Shown here: positions 33,900-63,509 of the stretch, piece after piece
Layout: every line of letters begins with the position of its first letter
How positions within the stretch are numbered: the stretch's first letter is position 1
IMG/VR virus record: IMGVR_UViG_3300036715_000468
Direction: 5' to 3' (one strand)
DNA length: 64,000 nt
Source: a virus
Notes under the pieces: generated by a model
Seen by the model: the letters and a program-made list of their open reading frames with translations, nothing else
Database searches by the model: none
What the model was told of the DNA's origin: nothing
Translations under genes and position numbers: made by a program

Positions 33900-36116
33900 T
33901 TAAACTACAATTAATGCTTCTGTTACGGGTGGATGCGGATCAATAACAAGTTCGCCGTCGACACAATCAACATTAACACGGCCGCCATCTTTTAACTTAC
34001 CGAATAAGATTTCTTTAGATAATACCTTTTTAATCTTCTCTTCGAATAAGCGTTCAAACGGTCTTGCACCCATTAATGGGTCATAACCATTTGTAGCAAG
34101 CCAGTCACGTGCCTGCTGAGTTACATTAAGTGTAATGTTCTTTGGAGCAAGCATTACATCTGTTTTCTCAACTTCGGCATTAACAATCAAATTCATTTCA
34201 TTCATTGTTAGTTTGTTAAATTTAACAATACCATCTAAACGATTTCTAAATTCTGGGCTAAAGAATTTTTTGATTTCAGCTTCAACAACTGCGCCGTTAT
34301 CTTGGCTACCAAAACCAATCTTTAATTTCTCAGCATCTGCTGCACCTAAGTTAGCAGACATAATAATGATTACGTTTGAGAAATCTACTGTCTTACCTTT
34401 AGACGATGTTAAGCGACCGTCATCCATTACTTGCAATAATACAGTTAATACGTCAGGATGGGCCTTTTCAACTTCATCGAGCAATAATACACAGTTCGGA
34501 TTAGTATCCACTACCTGAATCAATTGTCCTTCACCCATTTTACCTTCGCCGTGTCCTACAAAACCTGGAGGGGCACCAATAAATTTAGATACTGTATGCT
34601 TTTCCATGTATTCAGACATATCAAAACGTGCAAAGTGAACGCCGAGTGATTCAGCAAGTTTCTTAGCAGTATAAGTCTTACCAGTACCGGTTGGGCCAGT
34701 AAATAAGAAGCTACCGATAGGCTTAGTTGGATTACGCAATCCAGCCTTAGACATAAAGATTGCTTCAACAAGTTTGTCAATAGCAACATCTTGTCCATAC
34801 ACTTTGTTCTTTATACGTGGTGCAAGATTTTCCAACGCACTGTTTTCCTTCATGTCGATCATCTCAACAGGAATATGTGCAATTTTTGCAGCCTGGCGAA
34901 CAACGGAATCTATCGTCACTATTTTTTCTTCACGTAACTTAGCGATGGCACCGGCCGAATCCATAACGTCGATTGCTTTGTCCGGGAAGAACTTAGACTT
35001 CATATAACGTCCCGACAAATCTACGCACATATCTGTCGCGCCTTCTTCGAATGTTACACCGTGGAACTTCTCGTATTGATATGCAATACCGCGAAGAATA
35101 AGTTTTGTTTCTTCTGCAGACGGTTGATTAATATCGTACTTCTGGAAACGACGCAACAGTGCTTTATCTTTTTCGAAGTGTTCGTGGAACTCATCGTATG
35201 TTGTAGCGCCGACACACATTAATTGGCCCTTAGCAAGCATAGGCTTTAACATGTTACCTGCATCCATCTGGCTACCAGTCGTAGAACCTGCGCCTAAAAT
35301 CATGTGTATTTCATCAATAAACATAATGCAGTTACCGAGTTTTTTAACTTGGTCTAACACACCTTTCAAACGTTCTTCGAAGTCACCGCGGAATTTCGTA
35401 CCAGCTAACAAAGCACTGATATCTAAACTGTATACAACCTTATCTTGCAATGCTTTTGGAACTTCTTTATTTATAATCTTCAGTGCCAAGCCTTCTGCTA
35501 ATGCAGTTTTACCCACACCAGGCTCGCCGACATACACAACATTGTTCTTTTTACGACGAGCTAAGATTTCGATAGTATCGACAACTTCGCGTTCACGTCC
35601 GATCACCGGATCAATTGCACCATCTGTTGCTTCTTTATTTAAGTTACGTGCATACAAGTCTAAGAAAGTGTCTTCTTGTGTTGCTTGTTTCTCGTCTGCC
35701 TTACGCAAATGTTCGATAATTTTTTCTCTAGACACGCCGTATTTGCCTAAGAAATAATGTGAGTGGCTTGTTTCTTCGCTTAATATACTTAACAAAATAG
35801 CTTCGTTGCTAAGTTCGGCGCGGCCGCTAAATACTGCTTGTGTCAGCGCTCGCTGGAATGTGCGTTGTAATACAGCCGTGCGTTTTGCGGGTATGTCTTT
35901 TAGTGCGTCCGGCTTTTTAAGTGCAGGATCACCCAAAAATTGTATAGTCTCCGTCTTAATTTTAGCTGGTTGCCCGCCAATAGCAAGGATAAGTTCATTA
36001 ACTTCTTTCTCATGTAACAGAGATAATAATACATGCTCTAATGTTACATATTCGTGATTGTTGTCATTTGCGATTGCAACTGCGCGTTCAATCATTTTCT
36101 CTACCTTCTTAGTCAT
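33900..36116 (-). CDS. clpA: ClpA-type AAA+ unfoldase (ATP-dependent Clp protease ATP-binding subunit)
   Basis: ClpA-like N-domain (EYVTLEHVLLSLL), two AAA modules with Walker A GEPGVGKTA and GPTGTGKT, no ClpB middle domain, a KIGFG ClpP-docking loop; 738 aa. Confidence 0.9.
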   Translation of the reverse strand: MTKKVEKMIERAVAIANDNNHEYVTLEHVLLSLLHEKEVNELILAIGGQPAKIKTETIQFLGDPALKKPDALKDIPAKRTAVLQRTFQRALTQAVFSGRAELSNEAILLSILSEETSHSHYFLGKYGVSREKIIEHLRKADEKQATQEDTFLDLYARNLNKEATDGAIDPVIGREREVVDTIEILARRKKNNVVYVGEPGVGKTALAEGLALKIINKEVPKALQDKVVYSLDISALLAGTKFRGDFEERLKGVLDQVKKLGNCIMFIDEIHMILGAGSTTGSQMDAGNMLKPMLAKGQLMCVGATTYDEFHEHFEKDKALLRRFQKYDINQPSAEETKLILRGIAYQYEKFHGVTFEEGATDMCVDLSGRYMKSKFFPDKAIDVMDSAGAIAKLREEKIVTIDSVVRQAAKIAHIPVEMIDMKENSALENLAPRIKNKVYGQDVAIDKLVEAIFMSKAGLRNPTKPIGSFLFTGPTGTGKTYTAKKLAESLGVHFARFDMSEYMEKHTVSKFIGAPPGFVGHGEGKMGEGQLIQVVDTNPNCVLLLDEVEKAHPDVLTVLLQVMDDGRLTSSKGKTVDFSNVIIIMSANLGAADAEKLKIGFGSQDNGAVVEAEIKKFFSPEFRNRLDGIVKFNKLTMNEMNLIVNAEVEKTDVMLAPKNITLNVTQQARDWLATNGYDPLMGARPFERLFEEKIKKVLSKEILFGKLKDGGRVNVDCVDGELVIDPHPPVTEALIVV

Positions 36117-36126
36117 TTTATTTTCC

Positions 36127-36927
36127 TTAAATATTAATTGAATCTCTGTGTGTCAATGTTTTTAAAACTTCCGCTTGTGCAACAGTCAGTGCCTTCGGAA
36201 TAGTAATAGTGATGCGAACTAATATATCACCATGTTTATCAAGTTCGGGGTTTCTCATTCCTTTGCCTGATAATTTAACTATTTGCCCGGGCTGTATGCC
36301 TGCTGGTATTACAAACTGTAGTTTAACACCATCTAAGTGGTCTAGTATAGCATCCATGCCAACCATGGCCTCGATAGCATCAATTGTTACGTCAACTAGT
36401 AAATCGTCATTAGATCGTTTAAATTTAAAATGCTGTTGTATATCAACACGATACATTTTGTTATCAACAAAAAATTTAGTTCCAGATCTTGCTCCTCGTG
36501 GAACATTAATCACTGCTGACGAACTAACTCTTATCGACTTACCTATATATGCATCTGCAAGAGATATCGTTAATATATGTGTTGTTGTTTGTTGTTGCTG
36601 CGGTTGCTGTGGTCGTTGATTGAAGAATGCCTTAAACATCTCATCGAACTGTGCTGTATCAGTGCTCTGATGTGTCCAACTAGACCTGTTATTTGAAAAT
36701 CCTGGTCCGGCATGGCCATAGGTATCATATTCTTTGCGTTTTTCGAGATCACTCAATACTTCATATGCGTCTTTTGCTTCTTTAAACTTTTCCTCGGCTG
36801 CTGCGGAGCCTTCCCCGGGATTTCGATCAGGATGAAACTTCATCGCTAGGCGTTTATATCTGCCTTTAATTTCTTCAGCGGTAGCAGTTCGTTCTAACCC
36901 TAATATTTCATAATAATCTTTTTTCAT
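36127..36927 (-). CDS. DnaJ-like J-domain co-chaperone (CbpA/DnaJ type, no zinc finger)
   Basis: N-terminal J domain DYYEILGL...[12 protein letters not shown] with HPD; a Q-rich linker ([10 protein letters not shown]) instead of a G/F region; C-terminal substrate-binding-like domain. Confidence 0.85.
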
Positions 36928-36933
36928 ATACTA

Positions 36934-36978
36934 TATTTATCGTAAGTAGTCATCTCTACACATTATAAAAGATAAATA
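36934..36978. promoter_or_regulatory. divergent pair of GATAAATA elements, each 5-6 nt from its ATG (minus 36934..36941 for dnaJ-like; plus 36971..36978 for the endonuclease)
   Basis: minus: GATAAATA-tagtat-ATG; plus: gataaata-agtat-ATG; neither has a Shine-Dalgarno. Confidence 0.4.
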
Positions 36979-36983
36979 AGTAT

Positions 36984-37748
36984 ATGTCAAAATATAAGCC
37001 TCGTGGAACAGCAATATCTTTAGCAAAACGGATGCCATTATCCGAATTTATAGATAAAGCTAAAATAATACATAATAATAAATATGACTACAGTTATGTA
37101 GATTATATTAACGCACATACGCATATAAAAATTATATGCCCCGAACACGGCGAGTGGATGCAAACCCCGATGAGTCATACTACGCGAAAATGTGGATGTC
37201 CTACCTGTGGGAATATCAAAAAAGGTATTTCCAAAAAAATATCATCATATAATAAATTTATTCTATTTGCAAAAAACTTCCATAATAACAAATATACATA
37301 TCTGGACGAAACATTCACTGGGATAACATCTATAATGAAAATTATCTGTCCAGTTCATGGAGAATTCTCCCAATCACCCGATGTCCATAAACGTGCCGGG
37401 TGTCAACGATGCGGATCAGGACCAGTTTCCGAAGCATCACAAGTATGGCTAGATTCTTTACATATATGTAAAGAATATCGAGAAATTTGGATTAAACTCG
37501 GATCTAAACGAATTAAGGTAGACGCATATGATCCGAATACAAACACTATATATGAATACTGGGGCGATTATTGGCACGGTAATCCCGATACATATGATCA
37601 TAAAAAGGTAAATTCGAATAATAAGAAAACATTCGGCGAATTATATTCTTTAACTATGGAAAGAATATCTCTTATAGAATCTGCAGGATATGCCCTTGTT
37701 CAAGTGTGGGAGAAAGACTGGTTAAAATCTATAAGTAATACGCCCTAA
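36984..37748 (+). CDS. freestanding homing-endonuclease-like protein (duplicated zinc-ribbon module plus a C-terminal Vsr / PD-(D/E)xK-like domain)
   Basis: two repeats of [10 protein letters not shown]...[14 protein letters not shown]...GC; C-terminus [22 protein letters not shown] resembles the Vsr/DUF559 core; a plus-strand insertion between dnaJ-like and infA. Confidence 0.5.
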
Positions 37749-37943
37749 TGTAAGATCATAACATGAAAGTTCCACTTCCACCAAATCATTTAATAAAATT
37801 TGAATATTATTCTTTCTAATTTTACCACTAATAACGGCATTAAGGGTGTGTCCGTTTTCTAATTTAACTTTAAATTTTGCTCCTGGTGCTGCATCAGTAA
37901 CACGCCCTTTTGTGACAATCATGCCATCTTTATCTTTAGCCAA
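37722..37943 (-). mobile_element. see CDS call below (placeholder removed)
   Basis: ignore; duplicate of the infA CDS entry that follows. Confidence 0.
37722..37943 (-). CDS. infA: translation initiation factor IF-1 homolog
   Basis: [73 protein letters not shown] aligns along its whole length with bacterial IF-1 (S1-like OB fold). Confidence 0.85.
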
Positions 37944-37947
37944 CTTA

Positions 37948-38700
37948 TTAGTTCCTATATGTTATTTGTGTATCTTTTAGCAACATTATCTTATTGTCAT
38001 AATTAACGGAAAGATATTTTCCTATTGGTAAAACTTGGCAATTTCCTAAAATGCTTAATAATATCTTAGCTTCATAAGGATCTCGACCTACCATAAAAGC
38101 AGACTCACTTAGGAAATTTCTACCAATAATAGTATCATAATCTCCTACATCAATAACTTCTGCAATCACTTTCTTACCGTTCCCTGCTAGTGTAACAAAG
38201 TTACCGTCAATAGTCAAGTCTGCGACTAAGGAAGCACTAAAAAATTTCTCAATAGATTCTTTCATTTCTTTCATTTTAAACTCATCCTTTGGTACATAGT
38301 CTGCGGGGTCGATAATAACATAATTGTATAATTCTGGGTCATTGTATGCAAATGATTGTCCGTTGGAAAAATATGTAGTTACAGTCCAGTCCATCGATCC
38401 ACTTAAATTACCTATATCTGTTAAGAGTGCTTGGAATTTATTCGGAAAAGTATCGTCACGATTCATTTCGACAAATACAAGATATCGACCTTCCTCATCG
38501 GTGTTAGGGCTTACTTCGACATCTAATGTATCGATAAATCCACGTTGAATAAATGTATTAAGATCTGCCGCTGGCTCTTCATCTGTAAGATAAAATGCAA
38601 CAACAATAACATCTACATCGTCGCCAGCTTTTGGCTCAAATTCGTCGATAGAGACGTCGGGCAATATAGTTCCCGCCAAGTCGCCATTCTTTAAGCTCAT
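37948..38700 (-). CDS. hypothetical protein
   Basis: 250-aa acidic ORF. Confidence 0.5.
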
Positions 38701-39299
38701 ACTTCTTCCTCCGGTGGCATCATATCACTAGTATCATCCATACCCATGCCCTGATCTTCTTCTGGCGCCATTTCCTCTTGCGGAGCTTCATCAAATGCAT
38801 CTGCTAGTTCTGCATTAGTATCATCGATGTCGCGCTGAATAATATCATCTGTTTGTTCTAATCCACGGCTGATATATTTCATCGGTAGTTCTATAGTTAC
38901 TAACCAAATTTCATGCTCAGCCATTTTAGCTCGTTTAGTTTGTGGGTCTACCCAGTCCTGCGGGCCTTCCACTTTTACAGGCTTTTTAAAAACACCTTTC
39001 CTAAAATTTACTTTTGCGCCTAACTTTGTTAACCGTAGTCCAGCATTTGGGTCGGGCATCATAGCGTAAGGATACATGAATACAACTTTGTACCAATAAC
39101 GACTAATAGTCGGGCCTTCGACCAGTTCGCCCAATATCCAATTCTTATATGCAAATATCTCTGCATTATCTAGTGTGCGCTCAAATTCGATCAGAGTGCT
39201 TAATATATCATTGCCCTTAGAGATATTTACAAGGGTTGTTTTTATCGTATCAAGATCCGTCATGTATTCCTTTTTGTCTATCCATATGCTATTTATCAA
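38697..39299 (-). CDS. hypothetical protein with an acidic C-terminal tail; probable true start at Met13 (about 39263)
   Basis: the TTG start called by the track lies inside a GATAAATA element; an in-frame ATG 36 nt downstream has an AAGGA RBS; the C-terminus is DE-rich ([26 protein letters not shown]). Confidence 0.5.
   Translation of the reverse strand: MINSIWIDKKEYMTDLDTIKTTLVNISKGNDILSTLIEFERTLDNAEIFAYKNWILGELVEGPTISRYWYKVVFMYPYAMMPDPNAGLRLTKLGAKVNFRKGVFKKPVKVEGPQDWVDPQTKRAKMAEHEIWLVTIELPMKYISRGLEQTDDIIQRDIDDTNAELADAFDEAPQEEMAPEEDQGMGMDDTSDMMPPEEEV
39290..39297 (-). promoter_or_regulatory. GATAAATA late-promoter-like element
   Basis: tatttatc on the plus strand, 28 nt upstream of the likely ATG of the acidic-tail gene. 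Confidence 0.4.
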
Positions 39300-39471
39300 T
39301 AATATGTAAGGTTCGTAAAATGTTGAATATAGTATATATTTACGTATGTTATGGTAAATACTTGTGTATGCAAATTACACTCGATACATTAATCGAAGTT
39401 CCCCGGGGTAGACAATTCCTGTCTAACAGCCCCATCGTCCCACAAAAACTAACTCAGCCAGGAGCATCATC

Positions 39472-40233
39472 TTGAGAAAAACTAGAAAAGAAGACACAAA
39501 ATCTGCAACAAAATCTTCACAAAACTCACGCACATCTTACCAACGGACCGATCCATCAGTAGTCAATGTAGTTAAACTCGCAAATAGAAATTATAAACGA
39601 GTAGAGATACTTCCACGCAATACTGCCCAAGAAGTTTATGTAGATGCACTATTGGAAAAACGTATAGTATTTGCAGTTGGGCCGGCGGGAACGGGTAAAA
39701 CATTACTAGGCGTACTGAGAGCTATCAAGGCTTTACGTGAAGGTGAAATTACAAAAATTATATTGACACGCCCTGCCGTCAGTGTAGACGAGAAGCACGG
39801 ATTTTTACCGGGTGACTTAAATGCTAAGATGGAACCTTGGACTAAACCTATTTTCGACGTATTCGAAGAACACTACGGGTTGTTGGAAACTAAAAAAATG
39901 TTGGAAGACGGGATCATTGAAATTGCACCATTGGGTTTCATGCGCGGTCGCACATTTAAGAATGCGTATGTCATTGCAGACGAAATGCAAAATTCAACTC
40001 CTGACCAGATGAAGATGTTGTTAACAAGGATAGGCGAAGGATGTTCTATGATCATTACAGGAGATATGAAACAACATGATCGTGGATTTGATAAGAATGG
40101 TTTAAAAGATTTTCTAGAACGTTTTAAAACAGCACCTAAGAAGTCAATGGCAATTTGTTTGTTCGAACGACAGCATGTCGAACGTGACGAGCTAGTCGGT
40201 GAGATACTTGATGTTTATGGAGACGACGAATAA
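39472..40233 (+). CDS. phoH: PhoH-like ATPase
   Basis: Walker A GPAGTGKT and the conserved PhoH core; an AGGAG RBS; the start codon appears to be TTG. Confidence 0.85.
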   Translation: MRKTRKEDTKSATKSSQNSRTSYQRTDPSVVNVVKLANRNYKRVEILPRNTAQEVYVDALLEKRIVFAVGPAGTGKTLLGVLRAIKALREGEITKIILTRPAVSVDEKHGFLPGDLNAKMEPWTKPIFDVFEEHYGLLETKKMLEDGIIEIAPLGFMRGRTFKNAYVIADEMQNSTPDQMKMLLTRIGEGCSMIITGDMKQHDRGFDKNGLKDFLERFKTAPKKSMAICLFERQHVERDELVGEILDVYGDDE

Positions 40234-40236
40234 AAC

Positions 40237-40259
40237 AAAAGCCCCGAAAGGGGCTTTTT
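40237..40259. terminator. bidirectional rho-independent terminator
   Basis: aaaagccccgaaaggggctttt between convergent genes. Confidence 0.65.
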
Positions 40260-40264
40260 AGTGA

Positions 40265-40624: not shown

Positions 40625-40654
40625 AGTATATCCTTAACGATATACTATTTATAA

Positions 40655-42143: not shown

Positions 42144-42522
42144 CAGTAAACAGTGGCACGGACGGTTCTACTTCTGCTTCTACTTTTGCTATAGGAGACT
42201 TCTCTGCGATAGGTGGCTTAACTTGCTGTTCTTTATAAGATACATCTAATTCAGCTAACTGCTTAGGATATTTTGTTTCGATATAATTTTCAAAATGATC
42301 GTAACTTTCCATGCCGAGGTGTTGGCCTGACAATAACCTCCTGTTAAGGTAATCGGCTGTAGAACTAGACATAGTAATATGTTGTTTCTTAAGATGGTTT
42401 ACAAATTCAATTGTTTCAACCATTTCCCAATCAGATTCGATTGGTTTACGTGATCCGACCCTGTTATTCTTTTTAAGAACTCGTTTGTGTGATATAACAA
42501 TAAAAACTTTCTCTTTACTCAT
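42097..42522 (-). CDS. possible clamp-loader small subunit (gp62-like), by position only
   Basis: 4-nt overlap with the upstream gp44-like gene, as for T4 genes 44/62; no convincing sequence match. Confidence 0.3.
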   Translation of the reverse strand: MSKEKVFIVISHKRVLKKNNRVGSRKPIESDWEMVETIEFVNHLKKQHITMSSSTADYLNRRLLSGQHLGMESYDHFENYIETKYPKQLAELDVSYKEQQVKPPIAEKSPIAKVEAEVEPSVPLFTDEFGNVRARTIFDHA

Positions 42523-43457
42523 GATATGCCCTTTGCAATTAATTCGAGTTCTACTAGTGTCGCTGAAAGGCAGATTTCCACATCAGCGCACATCGTATGT
42601 TTTACTAGTCCATCTCTGATAGCCAAAATAGCTCTATTCTGTTTATCGTCCTCTTGTCCCCATACTGCTAAATTCTGATACATAAATGTATAGATATCTT
42701 CATATTCGTCTCGTCCTGCTTTCTGACAAATAAGTGTTCTTGCTTCCTTATACTTTCCGGCCCTAAATAGACTAATCATATCAATTTTATAATCTGATAC
42801 TACTTCTGAATCTGCGTCCGGTGATGTTAATTTACCACCAAACGAATTAGCCTGAATCATACTGATTCCCCTGCGCAAGTCGGGATATGTCTTCTGAACA
42901 ATCTCTTCTAATGCATCGGGATCGATAACGACACCCTCAAGATCCAACACGTTAACTAGACGCATGAAGAATTCACTTGTGTCTAATTTTTCGATATGCA
43001 TACGGCCTGTCTCACATCTAGATTTAATAGCATCAATAATCTTATGAGGATGATTGCATGTTAATAAAAATCTGACAGAGCTTGCATACTTCTCTAAAGT
43101 GCCACGTAAGACGCCTTGCGCTGCGGGTGATAATCCATCTGCCTCATCTAAGAAAATATATTTTATATCTCCAGCGCCCATTGTTTCGGAAAATCGTGTT
43201 ATTGTATCTCTGATAAAATCGACACCGTTATCTTTAGATGCATTAACCTCTAATACATCAAATGGATCAACGCCGAGTTCATTTAATAATACTTTAATGA
43301 GAGTGGATTTACCTGTACCCGGTGAGCCCGATAGTAACATATGCGGAAGTGCTCCGCCAGATATCCATTTATTAATTTGTTTCTTTTGTTTCTCGTCTTT
43401 GAATACATAGTCGGCGACTGTTTTTGGCCGGTACGATTCTGTCCATAGTTTCTTCAT
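42519..43457 (-). CDS. clamp-loader ATPase (T4 gp44 / RFC small-subunit-like AAA+)
   Basis: ESYRPKTV...LLSGSPGTGKST (RFC box II/III), DEAD-like FLDEADGL, SRC box IKSRC. Confidence 0.85.
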   Translation of the reverse strand: MKKLWTESYRPKTVADYVFKDEKQKKQINKWISGGALPHMLLSGSPGTGKSTLIKVLLNELGVDPFDVLEVNASKDNGVDFIRDTITRFSETMGAGDIKYIFLDEADGLSPAAQGVLRGTLEKYASSVRFLLTCNHPHKIIDAIKSRCETGRMHIEKLDTSEFFMRLVNVLDLEGVVIDPDALEEIVQKTYPDLRRGISMIQANSFGGKLTSPDADSEVVSDYKIDMISLFRAGKYKEARTLICQKAGRDEYEDIYTFMYQNLAVWGQEDDKQNRAILAIRDGLVKHTMCADVEICLSATLVELELIAKGIS

Positions 43458-43468: not shown

Positions 43469-43822
43469 TTAAAACGGTCGTGTTGTTACAAATTCTGAAA
43501 ATATATCTGTCTCTTGCACTGTATCCGAAACTAACAGAACCGACTTAGGATATTCTACTGCCCACAACGGTAATTCTTGATTAGCTTCGTCTTTAATTTT
43601 GATCATCCTTGTCCAACGACCATTTTCTATCAGAATCCACTGACCTACGCGGATTGCACCAAGTGCTTCTATGTCTTCGCCAACAGCATATACTTTTGCC
43701 CAACGTGGACGAATACCCTCGCTCTTGCCGTCATCAGCAGGAATAATAATTCCATTCACGGTCCTAGTGCCTCGTTCGAGTTCAGTTACGAGAACCTTAC
43801 CCTTCATTGCTTTAATTTCCAT
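43469..43822 (-). CDS. GroES-like co-chaperonin (Cpn10 / T4 gp31-like)
   Basis: MKGKVLVTELERGTRTVNGIIIPAD...AKVYAVGED...IRVGQWILI parallels GroES IRPLHDRVIVKR...GGIVLP...GEVLAVGNG...VKVGDIVIF. Confidence 0.55.
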   Translation of the reverse strand: MEIKAMKGKVLVTELERGTRTVNGIIIPADDGKSEGIRPRWAKVYAVGEDIEALGAIRVGQWILIENGRWTRMIKIKDEANQELPLWAVEYPKSVLLVSDTVQETDIFSEFVTTRPF

Positions 43823-47845: not shown

Positions 47846-48060
47846 AACCCTAATAATTTCCTAATTACTAAATATTCTTCCCAAGCCGCTCGTAGTGCAG
47901 GATACATTATTAATTGCTTAGGCGTTGGGCACTTACTCTTTTCGTATTCCGACGATATCAGTATTTGTTCCCAACTTGTGCCCGTCCCTTGATTTTGAGT
48001 ATCATAATACATATCACCTATAAGCGGGTGTAAGGGTTTATAATATGTTACATTGGCCAT
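47842..48060 (-). CDS. hypothetical protein
   Basis: 72-aa ORF. Confidence 0.35.
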   Translation of the reverse strand: MANVTYYKPLHPLIGDMYYDTQNQGTGTSWEQILISSEYEKSKCPTPKQLIMYPALRAAWEEYLVIRKLLGL

Positions 48061-48470
48061 GTTAACTCAAATAATGTAGCGTGTGTTGTATTAGCAAAAT
48101 AAATTTCTAATGTACCGGTCGTAATATTTCCTATACCCCAGTCCCAATCCGTGCCCTGAATGCCAATATGTTCTTCCAGCCACGGACGGTAATGCTGATT
48201 TGGTTCAGAATCAAGCCCACGCATAAATGGACGAGTTGCAGTATGTAATGTTATCATATCAGATATTATCTGCGGATACTTTCTAAATAATATATATTCA
48301 TAATTTGCTGACATATTAAATATTAAGCCGGCTGGTGCAGCCATCGGCTGCACAGCAAGTATATCATTGGCCAGAATTGTCGGCATACATTGTCTGATCA
48401 ATGGCATCATTGCCTTTCTAAATGTCTCCATCTTCCCTGTTATCGGAATTGTATGCATCAAATTTCCCAC
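48048..48470 (-). CDS. protein with the family motif at its C-terminus
   Basis: C-terminus ...IYFANTTHATLFELTWPM. Confidence 0.4.
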   Translation of the reverse strand: MGNLMHTIPITGKMETFRKAMMPLIRQCMPTILANDILAVQPMAAPAGLIFNMSANYEYILFRKYPQIISDMITLHTATRPFMRGLDSEPNQHYRPWLEEHIGIQGTDWDWGIGNITTGTLEIYFANTTHATLFELTWPM

Positions 48471-55073: not shown

Positions 55074-55091
55074 TGGTGCCGTAGCACCACT
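55074..55091 (-). terminator. hairpin terminator
   Basis: gtggtgc-cgta-gcaccac followed by a TTTTCAC run on the minus strand. Confidence 0.4.
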
Positions 55092-55118
55092 AAGGGATAC
55101 AGGTAAACTTCTACCTAT

Positions 55119-55295: not shown

Positions 55296-55296
55296 A

Positions 55297-57117
55297 TTAT
55301 CTGCCGTAGCCTTTCATGTTACCTAGTTTAGCAAAACGCTGCATCCATTCTAATACTTCTGGATCTACGCCTTCTTTGATATCTTCTATATCGTCTTCTT
55401 TATCAGCTTTAGAATCATAATCTCTCTCATGCTTCAAACCTGTAGCAGTCTTAGTAGTTTTACCGTCTTCTTTCTTATCTTTCTTAGCAAGGTCTCTCCA
55501 AGGATTTTTATCATCAGATTCTTCCTTTACATTTTTACGGCCCCGTGCTTGTGCCCATTCCTCGTCTCCTTTAGTACCACGTGGACCACTTGTCGATGGT
55601 TGACTTTCTTTAATCTTTCCGCCAAGTGTTTTCATGCCCAATACTGGCGCAACTGATTCGACAAGCTTGTCATATTTTTTAAGTGTTGCTATCATTGCTG
55701 CTACGTCTTTGTCTACATTATTTTCCATAATTTCATTTCCTATAAATTTAATTGATTCTGGCATTGTCGGCGCTGTACCCGGTGGATATTGGCCACCGCC
55801 TGTTGGGCCAGCGCCGCCGCCCATTGAACCTATTTCGCCGCCTGTAGCAGCACCCATATCTTCGTCGTCTTCTTCTAGCTCTTTGTCTTCTTCTAGCTCT
55901 TTGTCTTCGCCCAGGTCTTCGTCTAGGTCTCTATCTTCTAACATAAATTTAACTAATTGTTTTATACTTTCCATTTGTGGTTCCTGGGCCGGTGCATGTA
56001 ATTGCGGTGTTTCTGCTGGTGCCTGTAATGATTGCTCTATGTCGTCTTTCTCAGGCTTTGCCTTTTTACGAACTTCATCTGTAAAATATCCCCTATCTAC
56101 AAATTTATGTAATTTTTCTATTTCCTGATCTATCTCATATGTCTTAATCTTAAAATCGTTCCCTTGCAAGGTCGGGTCGACTGAAAGATCTGCAAATGCT
56201 TTTTCCATCTGCGGTTTTTTTTCTTTTAATGCCGATGATAGATCTGTGAATAAATACGGAAATTTCTGACTTACCGTAGCTGCATTGGCTGGACGATCAG
56301 TTATATCCATAAAATTAGGCCCACCTGCATCAAATTGATATTTTTCAGTTTGACTTAGTTCCTTCTTACCGTCATCGTCGGTAACATTAACTGTCTCGTC
56401 TTCTGCATTTTTCGTCTTTGCATAAGGAAATAATTGAAATAGCATTGCTGCATCACTGTATCTATGGTAGTGTGTATCACTATTTGAATTTGCTGTACAC
56501 CATTGTGTACCTAATCCTAATGCACATCCAGCGGCACGATTTAATGTAGTATAAATTCTATAATCATCATTATCGACAAGTTTAATGCTCTTAGCCATTT
56601 TGTTTCTGGCAGCATTTTTAGATGCATCGCGCAAAGCTCCTAATTTATCTTTATAGTGTGTTGTCATATAATACCCGACATCACGAACGCTGTTAAATTT
56701 AGGCAAATCTTTATGGTTTGGATCTAACATATTACGATTCTTTAATAAGTACCAATCGCACAGGTTCATATTCATAACACCTGTTAAATCTTCCCAATTA
56801 TGACTACCTGCTATATATCGTCTTACAATCCAGTCACTATTTACTCCATCACGAGAATAAACAATACCTTCATATCCCTCGCGCTCAATGTTATCGATAT
56901 TTTCTAAGAACCATTGTGCTAATTGTTCATCTGGCGCCTTTTGGTATGACCTACTTGCACCCGGCGGAAATGCACCCGGGTGTGAACGTGCATCGTCCCG
57001 AATCGCATCAGCGAGATTGACTACTAAATTCTTATCATTCATTACCCGCTGACTGCCTTTTGTTAAGGCAGCAGCTTCAATAAGAAAAGCTTCGATGAGT
57101 GACTTTAATAAACTCAT
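55297..57117 (-). CDS. large acidic protein of unknown function (late gene; possible virion or ejected protein)
   Basis: 606 aa; DKELEEDKELEEDDED repeat; Gly-rich segment; coupled to the 1124-aa gene. Confidence 0.6.
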   Translation of the reverse strand: MSLLKSLIEAFLIEAAALTKGSQRVMNDKNLVVNLADAIRDDARSHPGAFPPGASRSYQKAPDEQLAQWFLENIDNIEREGYEGIVYSRDGVNSDWIVRRYIAGSHNWEDLTGVMNMNLCDWYLLKNRNMLDPNHKDLPKFNSVRDVGYYMTTHYKDKLGALRDASKNAARNKMAKSIKLVDNDDYRIYTTLNRAAGCALGLGTQWCTANSNSDTHYHRYSDAAMLFQLFPYAKTKNAEDETVNVTDDDGKKELSQTEKYQFDAGGPNFMDITDRPANAATVSQKFPYLFTDLSSALKEKKPQMEKAFADLSVDPTLQGNDFKIKTYEIDQEIEKLHKFVDRGYFTDEVRKKAKPEKDDIEQSLQAPAETPQLHAPAQEPQMESIKQLVKFMLEDRDLDEDLGEDKELEEDKELEEDDEDMGAATGGEIGSMGGGAGPTGGGQYPPGTAPTMPESIKFIGNEIMENNVDKDVAAMIATLKKYDKLVESVAPVLGMKTLGGKIKESQPSTSGPRGTKGDEEWAQARGRKNVKEESDDKNPWRDLAKKDKKEDGKTTKTATGLKHERDYDSKADKEDDIEDIKEGVDPEVLEWMQRFAKLGNMKGYGR

Positions 57118-60100
57118 TATGTCAATGCTACCAAACTATCTCTTAATGCATCTAACACAGGCTTCAATGCTGCTGAATTACCTTCTGCAGCAGATCTCAG
57201 GAACTCTTCAAATTCAGGTGTATATGACTGTGAACCCGATGCCTGAATAAGTGCATTTCTTAACTGTTGTTTTAATGCATACGCACCTTCACCCGCTAAA
57301 GGACCCGATGTATCAATTGTAGCAAGCAACTGCTTTAGTTTACCGCCACTCTGTGCAATTTTTGTTGCTGCTTCAAAATTGCCGCCATCGATATAACGCT
57401 TTGCTCTATTGTTAATCTGACCTAATGCTTGGTTCGCCAATGTTTTTAAAACTGGACGAACTCTAGTAAGAATCTTTGAAACTGCGTCAGCTTGATTAAA
57501 TGCAGGAACTTTCTTCATATCTGCACGTTTAGCCATTTTATCTCTTTCAACAGATCCGGTCGATGCTTCAATATCCTGCGGTTCGCCTTTATCGCCCCTG
57601 ATTCCCCAAAAGCCCGATACCCAGACATATTTAAGTGTACCAATTTCTTCTGCTAATAGATTAAAGACGTTGTAAGGAACCTGTGTATCTTTACCATGTG
57701 CCATACCCATACGTGTTCTAATTACTGTAGGATCTTGTGTCGTAAATTGATCATCTGGATTCTTCGGAGTCTTAACTTCTTTTTCAGGAGCCTGGAACAA
57801 TGATGAATCAAGTTTAGCTCCATCGTTCTTAAAAGCAACTACTTGATATTTAAGATTTGAATCTCCTGAAGGATTATATGTTTTACGTTTTTCCGCATAA
57901 CGTGTTGTCATATGGTCGATATAAGCTTGCGAAGGCTTAATACCTGCGACGCCGTCTGTTCCTTGAACAATAACAAAGTTATCTGGATTACTCTTAAATT
58001 CTGTCCACAATACGTTCTTATTAAACGGTAACTGGCGTAATTCGGATTCATTACCTAGCTTGTGTTTACCGTGTAGGAATTTTACTAAATTCTGGCCACC
58101 CTCGTTTCTTTTTCCATTTGGTAGTTTACCGACCTTCTGACTAAGTGTGCTTTCTTCAATTTCTTCTTCGTCTAATGCTGTTTCTCTTAAGATTGCATTG
58201 ATTTCTTCATCCCACTTAATCTGTTCGAATAAGGTAGGTTTAAGCACTGATAGTATGCTAGATTCGCGTAATCTCGGCATATTTCCGGGGCCAGGACGAC
58301 CTAACTGCGCATTACCACTACCAAAAGATTTTGCATCTTTATCTGGGTAAGCATAGATATATTGACCTGCTTGATCTCTGACAACATGGAATCTGATACC
58401 ATTCGCCTTAAATTCTTTTACATCTGGTTTGTAGCCCGGGATAGCCATTCCGTGACTTACATCCACCGATCCCATATCTTCAGCATTGTCGCGTAACCAT
58501 CCTGCTACAGCTCGCATCTCTGCTTCTGTATTCGGGCCTTGCCCATCAACATTAGCCATTGTCTGAATTTGTTCTACAGGTGTATTAGTAAACATACCAA
58601 ATACTTGACGACCCATTCCGCGGATATTTCTGTCTCCGAATCCTGGCAAATTATTTACGTTATGCCAATCCGGTGTTTGCATTCCAGATGCTTGCATTGC
58701 CTGACTAATAACAGATGGAACATCTCTTGCTGTTCTTATCATTAATTCATTCTGCGGAGTATCAGGTGTTGTATTTGCAAGTTCGCCTTCGCCTGCACCG
58801 GCGTATGGACTAATGCGATTCATTAAGTCACGCATTGTCTGTGATGGATTCATTCCACGAAGCTGATTTTGTGTATCTGCTCTTGATGCTGATGGTAAAT
58901 GCATCGGCGAATCTCCAGCGGCAATATTGCCGTCAGTATCAACGTCTGCAGGCAGATATGTCGGACGCGGGTTTAATACATCGTCTAAATCATCCAATGG
59001 ATCATACATTTTAGTCTTTGTTGGTTTTGGAGCAGGCTCAAAAGCTTCGGATATATCGCCAGTTACCTGTGAATGTATTTGTTGTAGCTGCTCCGGGGAC
59101 ATACTTCTTAATTCATCTTCGTTATAAAGTTTATTCGAATTACTAATCCCCATCTCTTGCATATATGCAATAGTCGAAATCATGTAAGTTAATTCGTCAT
59201 CTTCATCGCCTTCGAATTCCGAATCATCGTCGTCGCCCATATCCATACCGCCATTACGCTGCGTATCGTTGGCATACATTCCGTCGTCTTCTGGTCGATC
59301 ACCGTCTTCGTAATCGCCGAAGCCGTCGTATTCATCTTCGTCGAGATTATCTTCGCCATATGTCATGGGAGAATTTTCACCGCCGGATTTTCTAAATTCC
59401 GTCTTAGTTACGATATCGCCTAACTTGACGCCTTTGCCAGACCGACCTTTCTCTGGCTGTTCGAATTCCATTTCTTCTTCTTCGACAGGCATGTTACCAC
59501 CTTTAAGTGGCATTACTTTGTTTGGAACTGCTGCGAATGGAATTTCAAATCCGTCTTCGTCATCTTCTTCCATACCCACTTCTTCTAATCCACTATATTC
59601 GTCTGCGCCGATATCTTGCATGCCAGAATCCAAGTCACACTGCATTGCATCGTGCTCATGATCTTCGTGACCACATGTAGGACATGCACTATGCATACCT
59701 GGCTCAGCCATATCCACGCCACCGATAACAATAGCTGCTTCTGGACCATCTGTATCATTATTCTGTGCAGGGAAGCATGTAGCACAATCCCAGCTACCAC
59801 AACCACATTCCGGTGCAGCTGGCATACTTGCACCAATATCGCCGCCTTCGTTTGACAGTGCTTCTTCTACTGTTGAAATCCATTTTGAAAATTCGTCTCT
59901 GTGGTCCATCTCTGGCTCCTTTTCTATTTTTACGTTTTGGGAACCAAGCGACATTGGAGATAGGTTACCGTCATTGTCTGTTTGGCTAAATCTTTCTTTT
60001 GCTGCTTGTTCTTGAATTGAACTTACGTTCGCTGTAGGTACGACAATTTCTCTATTGTCAAAGCTAATAATGCAATCTAATCCGCTTGTGCTATATGCAA

Positions 60101-60491
60101 TGAAAATACCGAAGCCTGGACCAATAACTGAACCGAATACATCTTCGATCTTTACCATATCGCCTGCGCGGAGTTCCGGAGCATTATTCATTGTGCCGAT
60201 TGTGTCAGGTACTACGCTTTTATGTGTCCAGCTGTTACTGTTTGTATATGGGTCTTCGTAATCACGATTTGGTAGGGAGAAATCGCCAAATTTTAATTCA
60301 CGTATAACACCCTTAATTTCGATCATTGCGCCCTGTGCTGTATCACGAATAAAACGGCCTGTGCCGCCACCGTAAGTAGGGTCAATCATCACTGTAGCAT
60401 TTTTCTCAACATTTACATTCTTTGCTGGTTGGTCGGCGATGGTAGGAGGAACTGTCTCCATAATCTTCAACCATTTTCTAAATTCTGACAT
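57117..60491 (-). CDS. very large protein of unknown function with Cys/His clusters and long acidic stretches (late gene)
   Basis: 1124 aa; CGCGSWDCATCF and CPTCGHEDHEHD clusters; poly-acidic DE-rich regions; GATAAATA late motif and a GAGGGA RBS upstream. Confidence 0.6.
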   Translation of the reverse strand: MSEFRKWLKIMETVPPTIADQPAKNVNVEKNATVMIDPTYGGGTGRFIRDTAQGAMIEIKGVIRELKFGDFSLPNRDYEDPYTNSNSWTHKSVVPDTIGTMNNAPELRAGDMVKIEDVFGSVIGPGFGIFIAYSTSGLDCIISFDNREIVVPTANVSSIQEQAAKERFSQTDNDGNLSPMSLGSQNVKIEKEPEMDHRDEFSKWISTVEEALSNEGGDIGASMPAAPECGCGSWDCATCFPAQNNDTDGPEAAIVIGGVDMAEPGMHSACPTCGHEDHEHDAMQCDLDSGMQDIGADEYSGLEEVGMEEDDEDGFEIPFAAVPNKVMPLKGGNMPVEEEEMEFEQPEKGRSGKGVKLGDIVTKTEFRKSGGENSPMTYGEDNLDEDEYDGFGDYEDGDRPEDDGMYANDTQRNGGMDMGDDDDSEFEGDEDDELTYMISTIAYMQEMGISNSNKLYNEDELRSMSPEQLQQIHSQVTGDISEAFEPAPKPTKTKMYDPLDDLDDVLNPRPTYLPADVDTDGNIAAGDSPMHLPSASRADTQNQLRGMNPSQTMRDLMNRISPYAGAGEGELANTTPDTPQNELMIRTARDVPSVISQAMQASGMQTPDWHNVNNLPGFGDRNIRGMGRQVFGMFTNTPVEQIQTMANVDGQGPNTEAEMRAVAGWLRDNAEDMGSVDVSHGMAIPGYKPDVKEFKANGIRFHVVRDQAGQYIYAYPDKDAKSFGSGNAQLGRPGPGNMPRLRESSILSVLKPTLFEQIKWDEEINAILRETALDEEEIEESTLSQKVGKLPNGKRNEGGQNLVKFLHGKHKLGNESELRQLPFNKNVLWTEFKSNPDNFVIVQGTDGVAGIKPSQAYIDHMTTRYAEKRKTYNPSGDSNLKYQVVAFKNDGAKLDSSLFQAPEKEVKTPKNPDDQFTTQDPTVIRTRMGMAHGKDTQVPYNVFNLLAEEIGTLKYVWVSGFWGIRGDKGEPQDIEASTGSVERDKMAKRADMKKVPAFNQADAVSKILTRVRPVLKTLANQALGQINNRAKRYIDGGNFEAATKIAQSGGKLKQLLATIDTSGPLAGEGAYALKQQLRNALIQASGSQSYTPEFEEFLRSAAEGNSAALKPVLDALRDSLVALT

Positions 60492-60518
60492 CGTATCCCT
60501 CGTTTATTTCAATATACT

Positions 60519-60526
60519 TATTTATC
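60519..60526 (-). promoter_or_regulatory. GATAAATA late-promoter-like element 28 nt upstream of the 1124-aa gene
   Basis: tatttatc on the plus strand. Confidence 0.4.
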
Positions 60527-60546
60527 ACAGAAGGTAGAGTTCGAAG

Positions 60547-60570
60547 TCAAAAAAAAGACTACCGAAGTAG
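60547..60570 (-). terminator. rho-independent terminator
   Basis: agactac-cgaa-gtagtct with an A8 run before and a T-run on the minus strand. Confidence 0.6.
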
Positions 60571-60735
60571 TCTTATGCATTGTTAGTGGAATTAAGTTCC
60601 TGTTCTATTATATAATCTGCCATTTCTGGTAGAAGTATTAAAAACATTCTATCATAGTGTGTTGCACAATATGATTTATAAGGAATAGCAGGATGTAAAC
60701 ATTTTTCATTATCACATCCTATCCATGTGCAAATT

Positions 60736-61065
60736 TTAGTCATCTAGCTCTTCTAAATGTTCCATGATAATAATATCATATTCGTATTTGACAGCATACT
60801 CAATTATTTCCGACAATTCGATTTCAGTTTCTGAAGTTGCCCACCATAATACGCGAGTCGGATCAATATCTTCGAATCCTGTTAATACTGCTATAGATTG
60901 CTCTAGATATGATGTGTAACTACCAAATATATCTGTATACGGGCCTAACGTAGCACTCAATATTTCTGTATACGGTATTACTTGAATTGTGCTAATGACC
61001 TCGCCGGAAAGCTCAGCTACTGAATAAGCTGTTCCTAGTGATGCAATATCTGTAATTTTATACAT
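60736..61065 (-). CDS. hypothetical protein
   Basis: 109-aa acidic ORF. Confidence 0.4.
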   Translation of the reverse strand: MYKITDIASLGTAYSVAELSGEVISTIQVIPYTEILSATLGPYTDIFGSYTSYLEQSIAVLTGFEDIDPTRVLWWATSETEIELSEIIEYAVKYEYDIIIMEHLEELDD

Positions 61066-61106
61066 GTTATTCTCCAGTTGATTTATGTTTGTATTCTTAC
61101 TATTAT

Positions 61107-62144
61107 TTATAATAGATGAATAAACCTATGTTTATTATCGTAAAATCTTGTTGAGCCAACCATTCTATCTAGTGTTGCTCTACCAATTATATCGGCAGTG
61201 AATCCCTCAATCTCATCTTCAACTTCGTCGACAGGTATATCTTCGACAGTAATATTTGATACATTAATTGTTGCCGATCCATCGTCTGGTACGTTGCCCA
61301 ATAATACAGGGAAGAAAGTAACTTTTGCATTACCCTCCAGTATCTCTTTATAATTCACAGATACATAGTATTCTAGTGTGTCGGGTTCTATATAAAGTAT
61401 CGAATGGAAATCTCTGCTATCAGAGCTTACTAAGCCGAATAACTCACACTTAGATCCGCCTAATGTATATATTTTATTTTCATCGATTACATTCGACGAA
61501 CCTTTGCCAAATAATATATGATTGAAATAGGCATTTTCTCTTGCAATAATATTTCTAAAATAGAATGATAACCCCGATATATTATTTTGATAAAATGTTG
61601 ATAAATTAAGTCTTGCCCTGGGATTAATTATGTAATTTGTTACTGCATTTAATGCACTAAAGCTTTCTATCTCTTCAATGATTTCGGCTTCTAACCCGTC
61701 GGCTATGTTAAACACGATAACTGAATTATAGAATGTTTCATAATCAGCAGTGTATTTTACATAAATTGGCTCGTCGATCTCTCCGACAATTTGAAATGTC
61801 GTGTGATTCTGACACACTAAGTATGCTAGTGTCGAAAATACTTCCGGATTATATAGATTTTTCGGATTCGTAGCCATGTTATGTTCTAGCGAATTTTTTA
61901 TAATAATACCTGGGTGATCAAATATAGCTTGGCTTACACGAATTTCATTACCCGATACTAATACTATTAATCCTGTAATAGCTGGATCAACAATCATCTG
62001 AACTTTATTGTTCTGTATTAAAAACCGTTGTTCGAAAAATGTATCTAACTTTGTGTTTTTATATTTGTCCTGTGTAGACGAAGATAATAACTCTTGATAG
62101 TATTTTCCTAAAAAGGCTTTTATTTGTATTAAATTTTCTGACAT
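61107..62144 (-). CDS. hypothetical protein
   Basis: 345-aa ORF. Confidence 0.5.
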   Translation of the reverse strand: MSENLIQIKAFLGKYYQELLSSSTQDKYKNTKLDTFFEQRFLIQNNKVQMIVDPAITGLIVLVSGNEIRVSQAIFDHPGIIIKNSLEHNMATNPKNLYNPEVFSTLAYLVCQNHTTFQIVGEIDEPIYVKYTADYETFYNSVIVFNIADGLEAEIIEEIESFSALNAVTNYIINPRARLNLSTFYQNNISGLSFYFRNIIARENAYFNHILFGKGSSNVIDENKIYTLGGSKCELFGLVSSDSRDFHSILYIEPDTLEYYVSVNYKEILEGNAKVTFFPVLLGNVPDDGSATINVSNITVEDIPVDEVEDEIEGFTADIIGRATLDRMVGSTRFYDNKHRFIHLL

Positions 62145-62169
62145 TTATTTCTCGTTAAGACGGACTATA

Positions 62170-62478
62170 TTATAGTTCTTCGAATGTTGGTGTCAATGGG
62201 AAGTTATTTGCTCTAGCAAAACTAATAGTTTCTAAAGTTTTTTCTTCAGCTACTTCACGTGTATATGGCGATCCTGCAATACCCTGTCCAGTAACATGTA
62301 TTGCGTGAGTTATATCTACGGCATCATCGACGGTACGATGGAAAATGTCTGTAAGAACTTTAATTACAAAGTCGAATGTAGACTTATCATCATTATGCAA
62401 TAAGACCTTATACATTTTTGGAATCTGGACTTTTATGGTCTCAGTTGTTTTTTCAATAATTTCTATTTCAGTTGCCAT
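62170..62478 (-). CDS. clpS: ClpS N-degron adaptor of ClpAP
   Basis: PKMYKVLLHNDDKSTFDFVIKVL...AIHVTGQGIAGSPYTREVAEEK...ARANNFPL is collinear with E. coli ClpS, including the NDD and His N-degron-binding residues. Confidence 0.9.
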   Translation of the reverse strand: MATEIEIIEKTTETIKVQIPKMYKVLLHNDDKSTFDFVIKVLTDIFHRTVDDAVDITHAIHVTGQGIAGSPYTREVAEEKTLETISFARANNFPLTPTFEEL

Positions 62479-62561
62479 GATTTGCGTCCTTTAGTGTGTA
62501 GCATACATTATTACACACCCGGGGTCTCTAAGTCAATTGGGTTTACTCGATAATATCTATG

Positions 62562-63509
62562 CTAATGGTGCGAAAATAACGATTTAAAAAAGTTTATTAT
62601 AGCCTCAAATATACCAGTACTCTGTGTTGGTTCTACTGACACAATAGGTGATGTACTTTCAATAGGAGCACTTGTGATAACGATATTGAACGGTTCGACA
62701 AATTGTTGATCATATAATGTAGGTGAACCGTCTAGTTCAGGGACTTGTTCGAGTCCATTTGTTTTCATAAAACTATCCATAGATAATATAAGATTTCTAT
62801 AAGTAATAGACGTATTAGATGCAGCAGCTAATAATGCAGCAGTTGCAGCACCCTGAGGGACACCGTTAATGACGGCATCTGCAGATGTCTGGTCGGCATG
62901 ACATCCAGCAATTAATAATGCACTTGCATTAATATCTTTAGATGCTGTCCAGTCAACTAGTGTTCTAGTTTTTAACTGATTAACAATCTTTGTAGGCGGC
63001 TTTAAGTAGCGAGCACCTTTTGTCTTTTTTGAAGATGCAGGTTTTACTAATTCTTTTGTACCATTAAGGCTTTCCGTTTGATTTAACATTGTCCCAGAAT
63101 GACAGCTATCTAAAATTACAGTAGTATTAACACCGTTAGGAACTTTATTGAAAATCTTACGTAAATCATTATCGGAGATAACTTTGTTCAGCCAATCTAA
63201 GTCAATCGGGCAAATTATTTCTTCAAACCCGTCTGGCTCGACTGAACTAGGAATTTGTGAGCCGTGTCCACTATAATGAAACACAATTACATCGCCAGAT
63301 TGCGTATCCGCTGTCAACCAAGCGAGACCTGCCTTAATTCCGGACGTCGTTGCTTCTTTTTCGAGGATCTGTTTAATATCTGTAAAACCTCGGGCTGTTA
63401 AAAAATCCTTCATATGTGTCGAATCATTTATACAACCATGTAATTCATTGCTAGTACCGACATAATTAATGGCTACTAATAGGGCGCGTTTTTTCATGTG
63501 AACCTCCAA
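62562..63509 (-). CDS. metacaspase/orthocaspase-like C14 cysteine protease
   Basis: catalytic His in VFHYSGHGS and Cys in ILDSCHSGT (the D-[AS]-C-H-S-G metacaspase signature); N-terminal ALLVAINY strand. Confidence 0.75.
   Translation of the reverse strand: MEVHMKKRALLVAINYVGTSNELHGCINDSTHMKDFLTARGFTDIKQILEKEATTSGIKAGLAWLTADTQSGDVIVFHYSGHGSQIPSSVEPDGFEEIICPIDLDWLNKVISDNDLRKIFNKVPNGVNTTVILDSCHSGTMLNQTESLNGTKELVKPASSKKTKGARYLKPPTKIVNQLKTRTLVDWTASKDINASALLIAGCHADQTSADAVINGVPQGAATAALLAAASNTSITYRNLILSMDSFMKTNGLEQVPELDGSPTLYDQQFVEPFNIVITSAPIESTSPIVSVEPTQSTGIFEAIINFFKSLFSHH

Follow-up and report, generated by a model that had tools for sequence, protein, structure and literature searches.

Homologues of ClpS, ClpA and ClpP and a metacaspase-like protease in an uncultured T4-like jumbo phage

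The locus and its phage

The window analysed here is a 64 000-nucleotide (nt) stretch of viral DNA, IMG/VR record IMGVR_UViG_3300036715_000468. It carries genes for the unfoldase ClpA, the peptidase ClpP and the adaptor ClpS, together with a metacaspase-like cysteine protease of family C14 (hereafter C14), a J-protein and a GroES-like co-chaperonin. These six genes, named in an initial annotation made from the letters alone, are all real open reading frames (ORFs) on the minus strand, and Pfam profile searches confirmed the family proposed for each (table 1). The phage encodes, as that annotation proposed, sequence-intact ClpS, ClpA and ClpP, which together could form a self-sufficient ClpAPS machine.

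Table 1. Genes and sites of the window discussed in the text.
Feature	Position	Strand	Evidence and remarks
ClpA-type double-ring AAA+ unfoldase, 738 amino acids (aa)	33900..36116	-	N-domain, D1 and D2 rings, without middle domain; IGF docking loop
J-protein (J domain and DnaJ C-terminal domain, without zinc-finger domain)	36127..36927	-	Pfam DnaJ 4.1e-25, DnaJ_C 1.8e-20; directly upstream of clpA
GroES/T4 gp31-like co-chaperonin	43469..43822	-	Pfam Cpn10 1.2e-6 (weak, above cut-off); phrog_931 'head morphogenesis' 6.8e-14; adjoins clamp loader
Canonical ClpP peptidase, 198 aa	51496..52092	-	Pfam CLP_protease 2.7e-67; Ser-His-Asp triad; N-terminal axial loop
SufB/SufD-fold protein, 345 aa	61107..62144	-	Weak SUFBD_core/SufD matches; AlphaFold2 (AF2) pLDDT 80; best Foldseek match E. 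coli SufBCD
ClpS adaptor, 102 aa	62170..62478	-	Pfam ClpS PF02617 2.6e-22, 78.8 bits against a cut-off of 23
Promoter-like site, TTGACT-18-AATAAT with TG (putative)	62507..62536	-	C14-clpS spacer; consensus match only
Metacaspase-like C14 cysteine protease	62562..63509	-	Pfam Peptidase_C14 1.2e-29; p20-linker-p10; C-terminal amphipathic helix
YkuD (L,D-transpeptidase-like), hydrophobic N-terminus	63522..63914	-	Pfam YkuD 3.7e-6; phrog_38499 1.6e-37; in the slot upstream of C14

The window has a G+C content of about 38%, and nearly every gene lies on one strand. A T4-type family B DNA polymerase (phrog_262, 5e-190), a clamp loader (42519-43457) and dozens of syntenic IMG/VR viral contigs support its phage nature. 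A scan of the window for tRNA genes found none. The window is a portion of the genome of a T4-like, uncultured jumbo phage in the Atu_ph07/Phosso/RaK2-like lineage. Judged by DNA polymerase and Clp proteins, Sinorhizobium phage Phosso (469 kb) and Agrobacterium phage Atu_ph07 (490 kb) are among the nearest deposited genomes; their DNA polymerases come closest of all, at 41-43% identity. Vibrio phage 2.275.O and RaK2-like phages are also near by these measures, and PA5oct matches via ClpA and ClpP only. A search of the phage collection for DNA nearly identical to clpA gave no match, and relatives were detected at the protein level only. The syntenic contigs belong to the same uncultured clade; the largest measure 369-385 kb, and a metagenome contig bearing homologues reaches 388 kb. 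The same phage was recovered at 99.99-100% nt identity from three other samples. All three show the same junction between C14 and clpS, which rules out an assembly artefact.

Gene order in the clade is ClpX, ribosomal protein homologue bS21, a variable slot, a small heat-shock protein (sHSP), clpS, a SufD-like gene and, further on, clpP and then the dnaJ-clpA pair. C14/ClpS, ClpP and DnaJ-ClpA follow one another in that order on single contigs of 134-184 kb, and the ClpX-bS21 genes show up in 10-kb flanks on the upstream side of the slot. Genes for sHSP, ClpX and bS21 were searched for inside the window and are absent there. In the same phage ClpX (412 aa, zf-C4_ClpX and AAA_2 domains) lies about 2.4 kb beyond the window end and is followed by the bS21 homologue (72 aa). 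The two genes together fall about 2.4-3.8 kb past the end; their span on L137, which represents the same phage (L137:5907-7366), corresponds to about 2.1-3.6 kb past position 64000. Members of the clade keep ClpX and bS21 as a pair. Available homologue searches return mostly metagenomic proteins from the same clade. The nearest homologues with names come from other phages, with identities of 38-56% (ClpS 38-41%, ClpA 49%, ClpP 56%), which argues against recent capture.

ClpA and its J-protein partner

An N-domain, two AAA+ modules and an IGF loop had been attributed to ClpA, and both the Pfam architecture (Clp_N, AAA, AAA_lid_9, AAA_2 at 1.3e-56 and ClpB_D2-small) and comparison with the E. 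coli protein bear this out. Phage ClpA is colinear with E. coli ClpA in a single full-length alignment (residues 3-717 against 4-734, 655 bits); ClpB and ClpC align to it in split pieces only. Among NCBIfam models TIGR02639, ClpA, ranks first at 866.5 bits, a lead of 170 bits over ClpB at 694. The corresponding PHROG family is phrog_4871 (5.6e-247). Walker A and B motifs are present in both rings (GEPGVGKT/FIDEIH and GPTGTGKT/LLDEVEKA), as are the pore-1 loops KFRG and GFVG and the N-domain segment HEYVTLEH. The docking loop reads KIGFG at the position of E. coli SIGLI, so that IGF replaces IGL. These motifs are conserved across 62 unique viral sequences, and a ClpP-docking loop of the IGF or GFG type occurs in 58 of the 62.

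The J-protein gene is a near-constant companion of clpA. Of 80 viral contigs with ClpA, 77 have the dnaJ-clpA pair, even where ClpA identity falls to 45%, and Atu_ph07 has the same pair as DnaJ gp293 and ClpA gp292 (PMC6102473).

Some side observations concern clpA in the wider collection. Among the ClpA loci L029-L108, only L105 and L108 have clpS and clpA in one operon, as bacteria do, together with an IGL loop; these two may be bacterial or prophage DNA. In L046 and L047 a piece of the clpA 3' end, covering residues 685-725, recurs at 73% identity about 1 kb downstream of the intact gene (at about 9171-9293), which suggests a mobile-element insertion beside clpA. An intein was considered for these two loci and ruled out: the extra piece is the downstream C-terminal fragment, not an in-frame insertion. 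RefSeq labels the PA5oct ClpA 'porphyrin biosynthesis'.

ClpP is of the canonical type

ClpP aligns with E. coli ClpP over 193 residues at 223 bits. The segments AASMG, MIHQP and DRD fall on the catalytic S97, H122 and D171, and the triad is invariant in 18 unique relatives. A 17-residue N-terminal segment, the axial loop, aligns with the N-terminus of E. coli ClpP. The initial annotation had raised the prospect of inactive variants; the ClpP triad and the ClpA Walker motifs are all intact.

It had also asked whether the ClpP homologue might act only as a prohead (head-maturation) protease, as RefSeq labels the Atu_ph07 and PA5oct homologues. Database labels speak for this: the best PHROG match is phrog_94 'head maturation protease' (1.7e-51), and RefSeq tags ClpP homologues with the same words (NC_042013, NC_071039). 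The profile models separate the two families in the opposite sense. ClpP scores 256.3 bits on NF001368, the canonical subfamily, above its cut-off of 249, and 103.7 bits on NF045542, the ClpP-related head maturation model, under its cut-off of 120. The protein is collinear end to end with E. coli ClpP, axial loop included, and is not fused to a scaffold or capsid protein. The gene is flanked by an alpha/beta hydrolase gene and small ORFs, with no head genes among them, and Atu_ph07 possesses a distinct 'prophage Clp protease-like' gp128 (PMC6102473). A role confined to head maturation is thus highly improbable. PHROG category names appear to have been carried over in error into the RefSeq and PHROG-style labels on canonical ClpP homologues and on the PA5oct ClpA.

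The alignment with E. coli ClpP also reveals the substitutions Y60N, F82Y, I90Y, M92T and F112Y, at positions that we take to form the pocket in which the unfoldase docks. Judged from sequence, the IGF loop of ClpA and these changes in ClpP could represent a phage-private pairing.

The ClpS adaptor

ClpS matches E. coli ClpS in the PDB at 3.4e-13 and belongs to phrog_27368. About 20 residues form an N-terminal extension ahead of PKMYKV, after which the folded core begins. The residues that bind the alpha-amino group of an N-degron, N34, D35, D36 and H66 in E. coli numbering, are retained, in 15-16 of 16 unique clade sequences. E75 and K80, invariant in the clade, align with E. coli E79 and K84, which we take from E. 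coli work to be contacts for the ClpA N-domain.

The N-degron pocket had been described as intact. That holds for the four residues at the alpha-amino group; the hydrophobic specificity pocket is partly remodelled. Among the pocket residues listed for ClpS, which include a gatekeeper (PMC12493166), L32, V43, V65 (I) and L99 are kept and four are changed: V33 to H, T38 to S, M40 to F and M62 to T. A gatekeeper other than Met shifts selectivity in Arabidopsis ClpS1 (PMC7966870). With three such changes, the gatekeeper among them, the canonical Leu/Phe/Trp/Tyr set should not be assumed for the phage protein. No family match to an Aat/Bpt-type transferase, which would produce secondary degrons, was found among the roughly 80 window ORFs scanned against Pfam.

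The surroundings of clpS are ordered on its downstream side. The SufD-like gene is its invariant neighbour there, some 25-35 nt away in 28 of 28 related loci. This family is confined to the phage clade (274 database hits), and neither Atu_ph07 nor Phosso has a homologue of it or of orf109. Upstream, an IbpA/IbpB-like sHSP gene (NCBIfam IbpA 1.7e-21) is found in nearly every clade member, for example at L002:11045-11494 and at equivalent places in L001-L027. In Atu_ph07 and Phosso the sHSP gene is parted from clpS by a thymidine kinase gene alone. In the phage of the window the sHSP gene at the clpS site was lost or never present.

Two further features were noted around clpS. A perfect sigma-70 consensus, TTGACA-16-TATAAT, a candidate promoter, lies within the 3' end of clpS (62169-62196, minus strand), shortly upstream of the SufD-like gene. 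Putative homing-endonuclease-like ORFs of 212-214 aa stand between sHSP and clpS at L001:11484-12122, L011:505-1143 and L012:4112-4756.

ClpS might act mainly on the host machine, redirecting host ClpAP or blocking host ClpA on phage or ssrA-tagged proteins, in which case phage ClpA would serve chiefly to unfold or remodel proteins together with the J-protein. Jumbo phages with ClpS only do exist, among Erwinia, Serratia, Xanthomonas and Salicola phages, and Iyer et al. (2021) proposed that the ClpS of such phages feeds host ClpAP (PMC7824862). In the window clpS is 26 kb from clpA, which is tightly linked to dnaJ instead. On the other side, this phage and its whole clade keep a ClpA with a conserved N-domain (HEYVTLEH) and IGF loop, and a canonical ClpP. 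The equivalents of E79 and K84, presumed to bind ClpA, are likewise kept in ClpS, and no feature distinguishes host from phage ClpA as its partner. We regard a mainly host-directed ClpS as unlikely.

The metacaspase-like protease

Gene callers place the start of C14 at the ATG at 63497, giving 311 aa, and not at the TTG at 63509. Its best PDB matches are the plant type II metacaspases AtMC4 and AtMC9, yeast Yca1 and Trypanosoma brucei TbMCA2. The AF2 model (pLDDT 82) retrieves only metacaspases as top Foldseek matches, at about 1e-20 (AtMC9 3.5e-20). The protein carries the motifs HYSGHG, DSCHSG, GCIND and DQTSAD. The His/Cys dyad H78 and C132, together with C22, D25 and D130, is invariant in 44 homologues of 50-66% identity. 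The last three residues align with motifs of AtMC4, AtMC9 and TbMCA2 and presumably form the acidic S1 pocket for Arg or Lys, in line with the assignment reported for the TbMCA2 structure; D25 is the Asp of the GCxND motif, and D130 stands two residues ahead of the catalytic Cys. On these motifs C14 is very likely an active protease and is probably Arg/Lys-specific.

The linker between p20 and p10 is disordered and Lys/Arg-rich in the AF2 model. A Pro/Thr-rich spacer followed by a C-terminal transmembrane (TM) helix is seen in 111 of 115 full-length homologues; the window protein and three other homologues have a C-terminal amphipathic helix in place of the TM helix. The family lacks an N-terminal signal peptide. 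A C-terminal anchor without a signal peptide indicates a protease that faces the cytoplasm while tethered to the membrane.

A PHROG search yielded no real family that represents C14. A PADLOC scan of C14, ClpS and their neighbours gave a generic caspase model for C14 (2.8e-15) and no defence-system context. A homologue is present in only one of 50,697 deposited phage records (LR745208.1). This tail-anchored family is abundant in metagenomes, and cultured phages essentially lack it; as a viral protease it is itself unexplored.

The C14-clpS linkage and the variable slot

In the window C14 and clpS lie on the same strand, 83 nt apart, and the initial annotation built on this proximity. The adjacency is a property of this phage only: C14 abuts clpS here because the sHSP gene is absent. 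Presence and absence of C14 were scored only on loci retrieved with ClpS as query, three of which were undeterminable. Among the 19 informative relatives C14 is present in 12 and absent from seven. All 12 that carry it have the sHSP gene between C14 and clpS, with a homing-endonuclease-like ORF besides in L013. The loci that lack C14 and keep clpS are L012, L014, L021, L022, L023, L027 and L028; the slot then holds YkuD alone, a pair of deacetylase-like and GH16-like genes, or nothing. In the phage of the window YkuD and three proteins with signal peptides occupy the slot upstream of C14.

The slot is a hypervariable site for envelope-directed cargo. The three proteins of the window phage (L137:7539-9559; 252, 253 and 134 aa), of low complexity and with typical Gram-negative signal peptides, separate bS21 from YkuD. 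L014 and L021 have polysaccharide-deacetylase-like and GH16/ConA-like proteins in the slot instead.

Deposited phages agree with this picture. In the 50,697 records, the 20 that are positive for ClpS and the one with C14 do not overlap. The C14 homologue of LR745208.1 has no Clp, sHSP or DnaJ gene within +-20 kb. Atu_ph07 and Phosso have the full Clp trio and lack C14. C14 is an optional gene of the variable slot and no fixed partner of ClpS.

These data bear directly on the model first offered for the locus, in which the metacaspase cuts host proteins after Arg or Lys and ClpS passes the resulting N-degron fragments to phage ClpAP, in host takeover or anti-defence. Natural E. coli ClpS substrates and the fragments made by eukaryotic caspases and calpains both arise by endoproteolysis, and the model has features of the locus on its side. 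C14 has an intact catalytic dyad and, as Arg/Lys specificity would lead one to expect, acidic S1 residues. In every relative with C14, the gene precedes clpS and points the same way. Lacking a signal peptide, its protease domain would share the cytoplasm with ClpAPS. Set against these are the absence of C14 from seven of the 19 informative relatives and from both cultured phages with the trio, and the sHSP gene that intervenes wherever relatives carry it. A promoter-like site is also found in the C14-clpS spacer, the slot otherwise holds exported envelope proteins, and C14 is membrane-tethered. The sole homologue in a deposited phage has no Clp neighbour, and the remodelled ClpS pocket leaves the canonical degrons open to doubt. 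Coupled cleavage and degradation is accordingly improbable, and the locus does not stand as the first complete phage N-degron machine joined to a degron-generating protease.

A variant of that model would have the membrane-tethered metacaspase clip membrane-proximal host or phage proteins, with the fragments cleared by a host-insulated, co-adapted phage ClpS-ClpA-ClpP (Phe gatekeeper, IGF and ClpP surfaces). We hold this to be equally doubtful.

A probable inherited set for quality control and degradation

The conserved dnaJ-clpA and sHSP-clpS pairs point to protein quality control. The genes probably constitute an inherited toolkit for proteostasis and degradation in the jumbo-phage lineage, which may serve virion production, host shut-off or anti-defence and in which the metacaspase looks like an unlinked, optional passenger. 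Family membership, motif integrity, synteny and presence or absence are established; from them we infer complex formation, N-degron delivery, substrates and a biological role along the following lines. (i) The toolkit would be vertically inherited, with ClpP, ClpA and its J-protein, ClpS, ClpX, the gp31-type co-chaperonin and the sHSP in most relatives. (ii) Phage ClpA hexamers would dock on phage ClpP via their IGF loops. (iii) ClpS would bind the ClpA N-domain and deliver proteins whose N-terminal residue fits its pocket. (iv) Given the altered pocket, the accepted residues may be other than Leu, Phe, Trp and Tyr. (v) The metacaspase, tethered to the membrane on its cytoplasmic side and encoded by an optional gene of an envelope-oriented slot, would cut specifically after Arg or Lys.

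Several points weigh against this interpretation. ClpA and ClpP are divergent members of their families, below the equivalog cut-offs (866.5 against 993 on TIGR02639; 229 against 308.6 on TIGR00493), and ClpS also falls below its NCBIfam equivalog cut-off (73 against 149). The ClpS changes V33H, M40F at the gatekeeper (14 of 16 sequences) and M62T are fixed or nearly so in the clade and differ from both E. coli and Caulobacter. The replacements in the ClpS and ClpP pockets make binding specificity, and cross-docking with host partners, uncertain. Activity of the phage Clp proteins is deduced from their sequences, and the proteostasis role from gene neighbourhoods. Finally C14, when present, is on the same strand as clpS and within 1-2.5 kb upstream of it, so that a loose functional link is possible.

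The wider takeover of host proteostasis suggested at the outset is plausible, although the GroES-like gene is an ordinary gp31-type capsid-folding co-chaperonin; such a gene beside the clamp loader is usual in T4-like phages.

Nor is the full trio in one phage new. The records of Atu_ph07 and Phosso (PV764938) are already annotated with ClpA, ClpP and ClpS. The Atu_ph07 gene list of Attai et al. (2018) comprises ClpX, ClpA (gp292) beside DnaJ (gp293), ClpB, ClpP and ClpS, the last discussed as a ClpAP adaptor (PMC6102473). A survey of jumbo phages notes ClpP, ClpS and ClpA/ClpX (PMC7824862), and PHROGs already holds phage families for ClpA and ClpS. The window represents a new, uncultured member of a described jumbo-phage gene set. 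A literature search on the function of phage ClpS, ClpA or canonical ClpP and on phage metacaspases found annotation-level mentions only and no experimental paper.

The significance of the locus lies in the persistence of the set. A whole lineage of jumbo phages maintains motif-intact ClpAP(S) and ClpXP components tied to a J-protein and an sHSP, which suggests that large phages of this lineage manage proteostasis or selective degradation themselves. An orthogonal protease with an altered N-recognin pocket could help in understanding host takeover and could serve as a degradation tool in synthetic biology.

Other genes of the window

Further genes of the window encode a sigma-like factor, PhoH, MazG, exonucleases and many orphan ORFs. 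Two small ORFs on the minus strand, 48048-48470 (140 aa) and 17691-18041 (116 aa), match the N-terminal 45 residues and residues 170-202 of the profile for the T4 major capsid protein Gp23; gene fragments are one explanation, capsid-targeting or propeptide-like peptides another. Neither of two large ORFs, 57117-60491 and 55297-57117 (both minus; 1124 and 606 aa), gave a match in Pfam, PHROG or PADLOC, but their order is kept across the clade. Three further regions, all on the minus strand, hold an SPFH/Band 7 protein (191-1408), a block of glycosyltransferase-like, ADH_N and GFO/IDH/MocA oxidoreductase genes that may serve sugar modification (14591-17464), and a DHH/DHHA1 phosphoesterase-like match, a weak one (19113-19943).

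Comparison with known systems

Atu_ph07 and Phosso are the closest described parallels. Like the phage of the window they are T4-like jumbo phages with dispersed ClpA, ClpP and ClpS genes, ClpA beside DnaJ, and ClpX. They share with its clade an sHSP gene near clpS, which the window phage itself does not have. They differ in having no metacaspase, no SufD-like gene by clpS, and a thymidine kinase gene between sHSP and clpS. Their identity to the window proteins is low (ClpP 56%, ClpA 42-44%, ClpS 38-41%), which places the window phage in a different, uncultured clade.

The bacterial ClpAPS systems of E. coli and Caulobacter share with the phage set the domain architecture, Walker motifs, pore loops, a docking tripeptide, and the ClpP triad and axial loops. 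For ClpS the common features are N34/D35/D36/H66, E79/K84 and the N-terminal extension. The phage set departs from them in having no clpS-clpA operon, an IGF in place of an IGL loop and a partly replaced ClpP pocket; its ClpS differs from that of E. coli in the Met40 to Phe gatekeeper, V33H and M62T.

C14 shares with type II metacaspases (Arabidopsis MC4 and MC9) and bacterial C14 proteins the p20 motifs HYSGHG/DSCHSG/GCxND, a Lys/Arg-rich linker and the p10 motif DQTSAD. Unlike these proteins it is phage-encoded and short, with a Pro/Thr-rich spacer and a C-terminal anchor or amphipathic helix.

Jumbo phages with ClpS only or ClpP only carry a patchy selection of Clp components, read in that work as tools against host proteins (PMC7824862). 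The phage described here differs from them in uniting the adaptor, two unfoldases and the peptidase in one genome.

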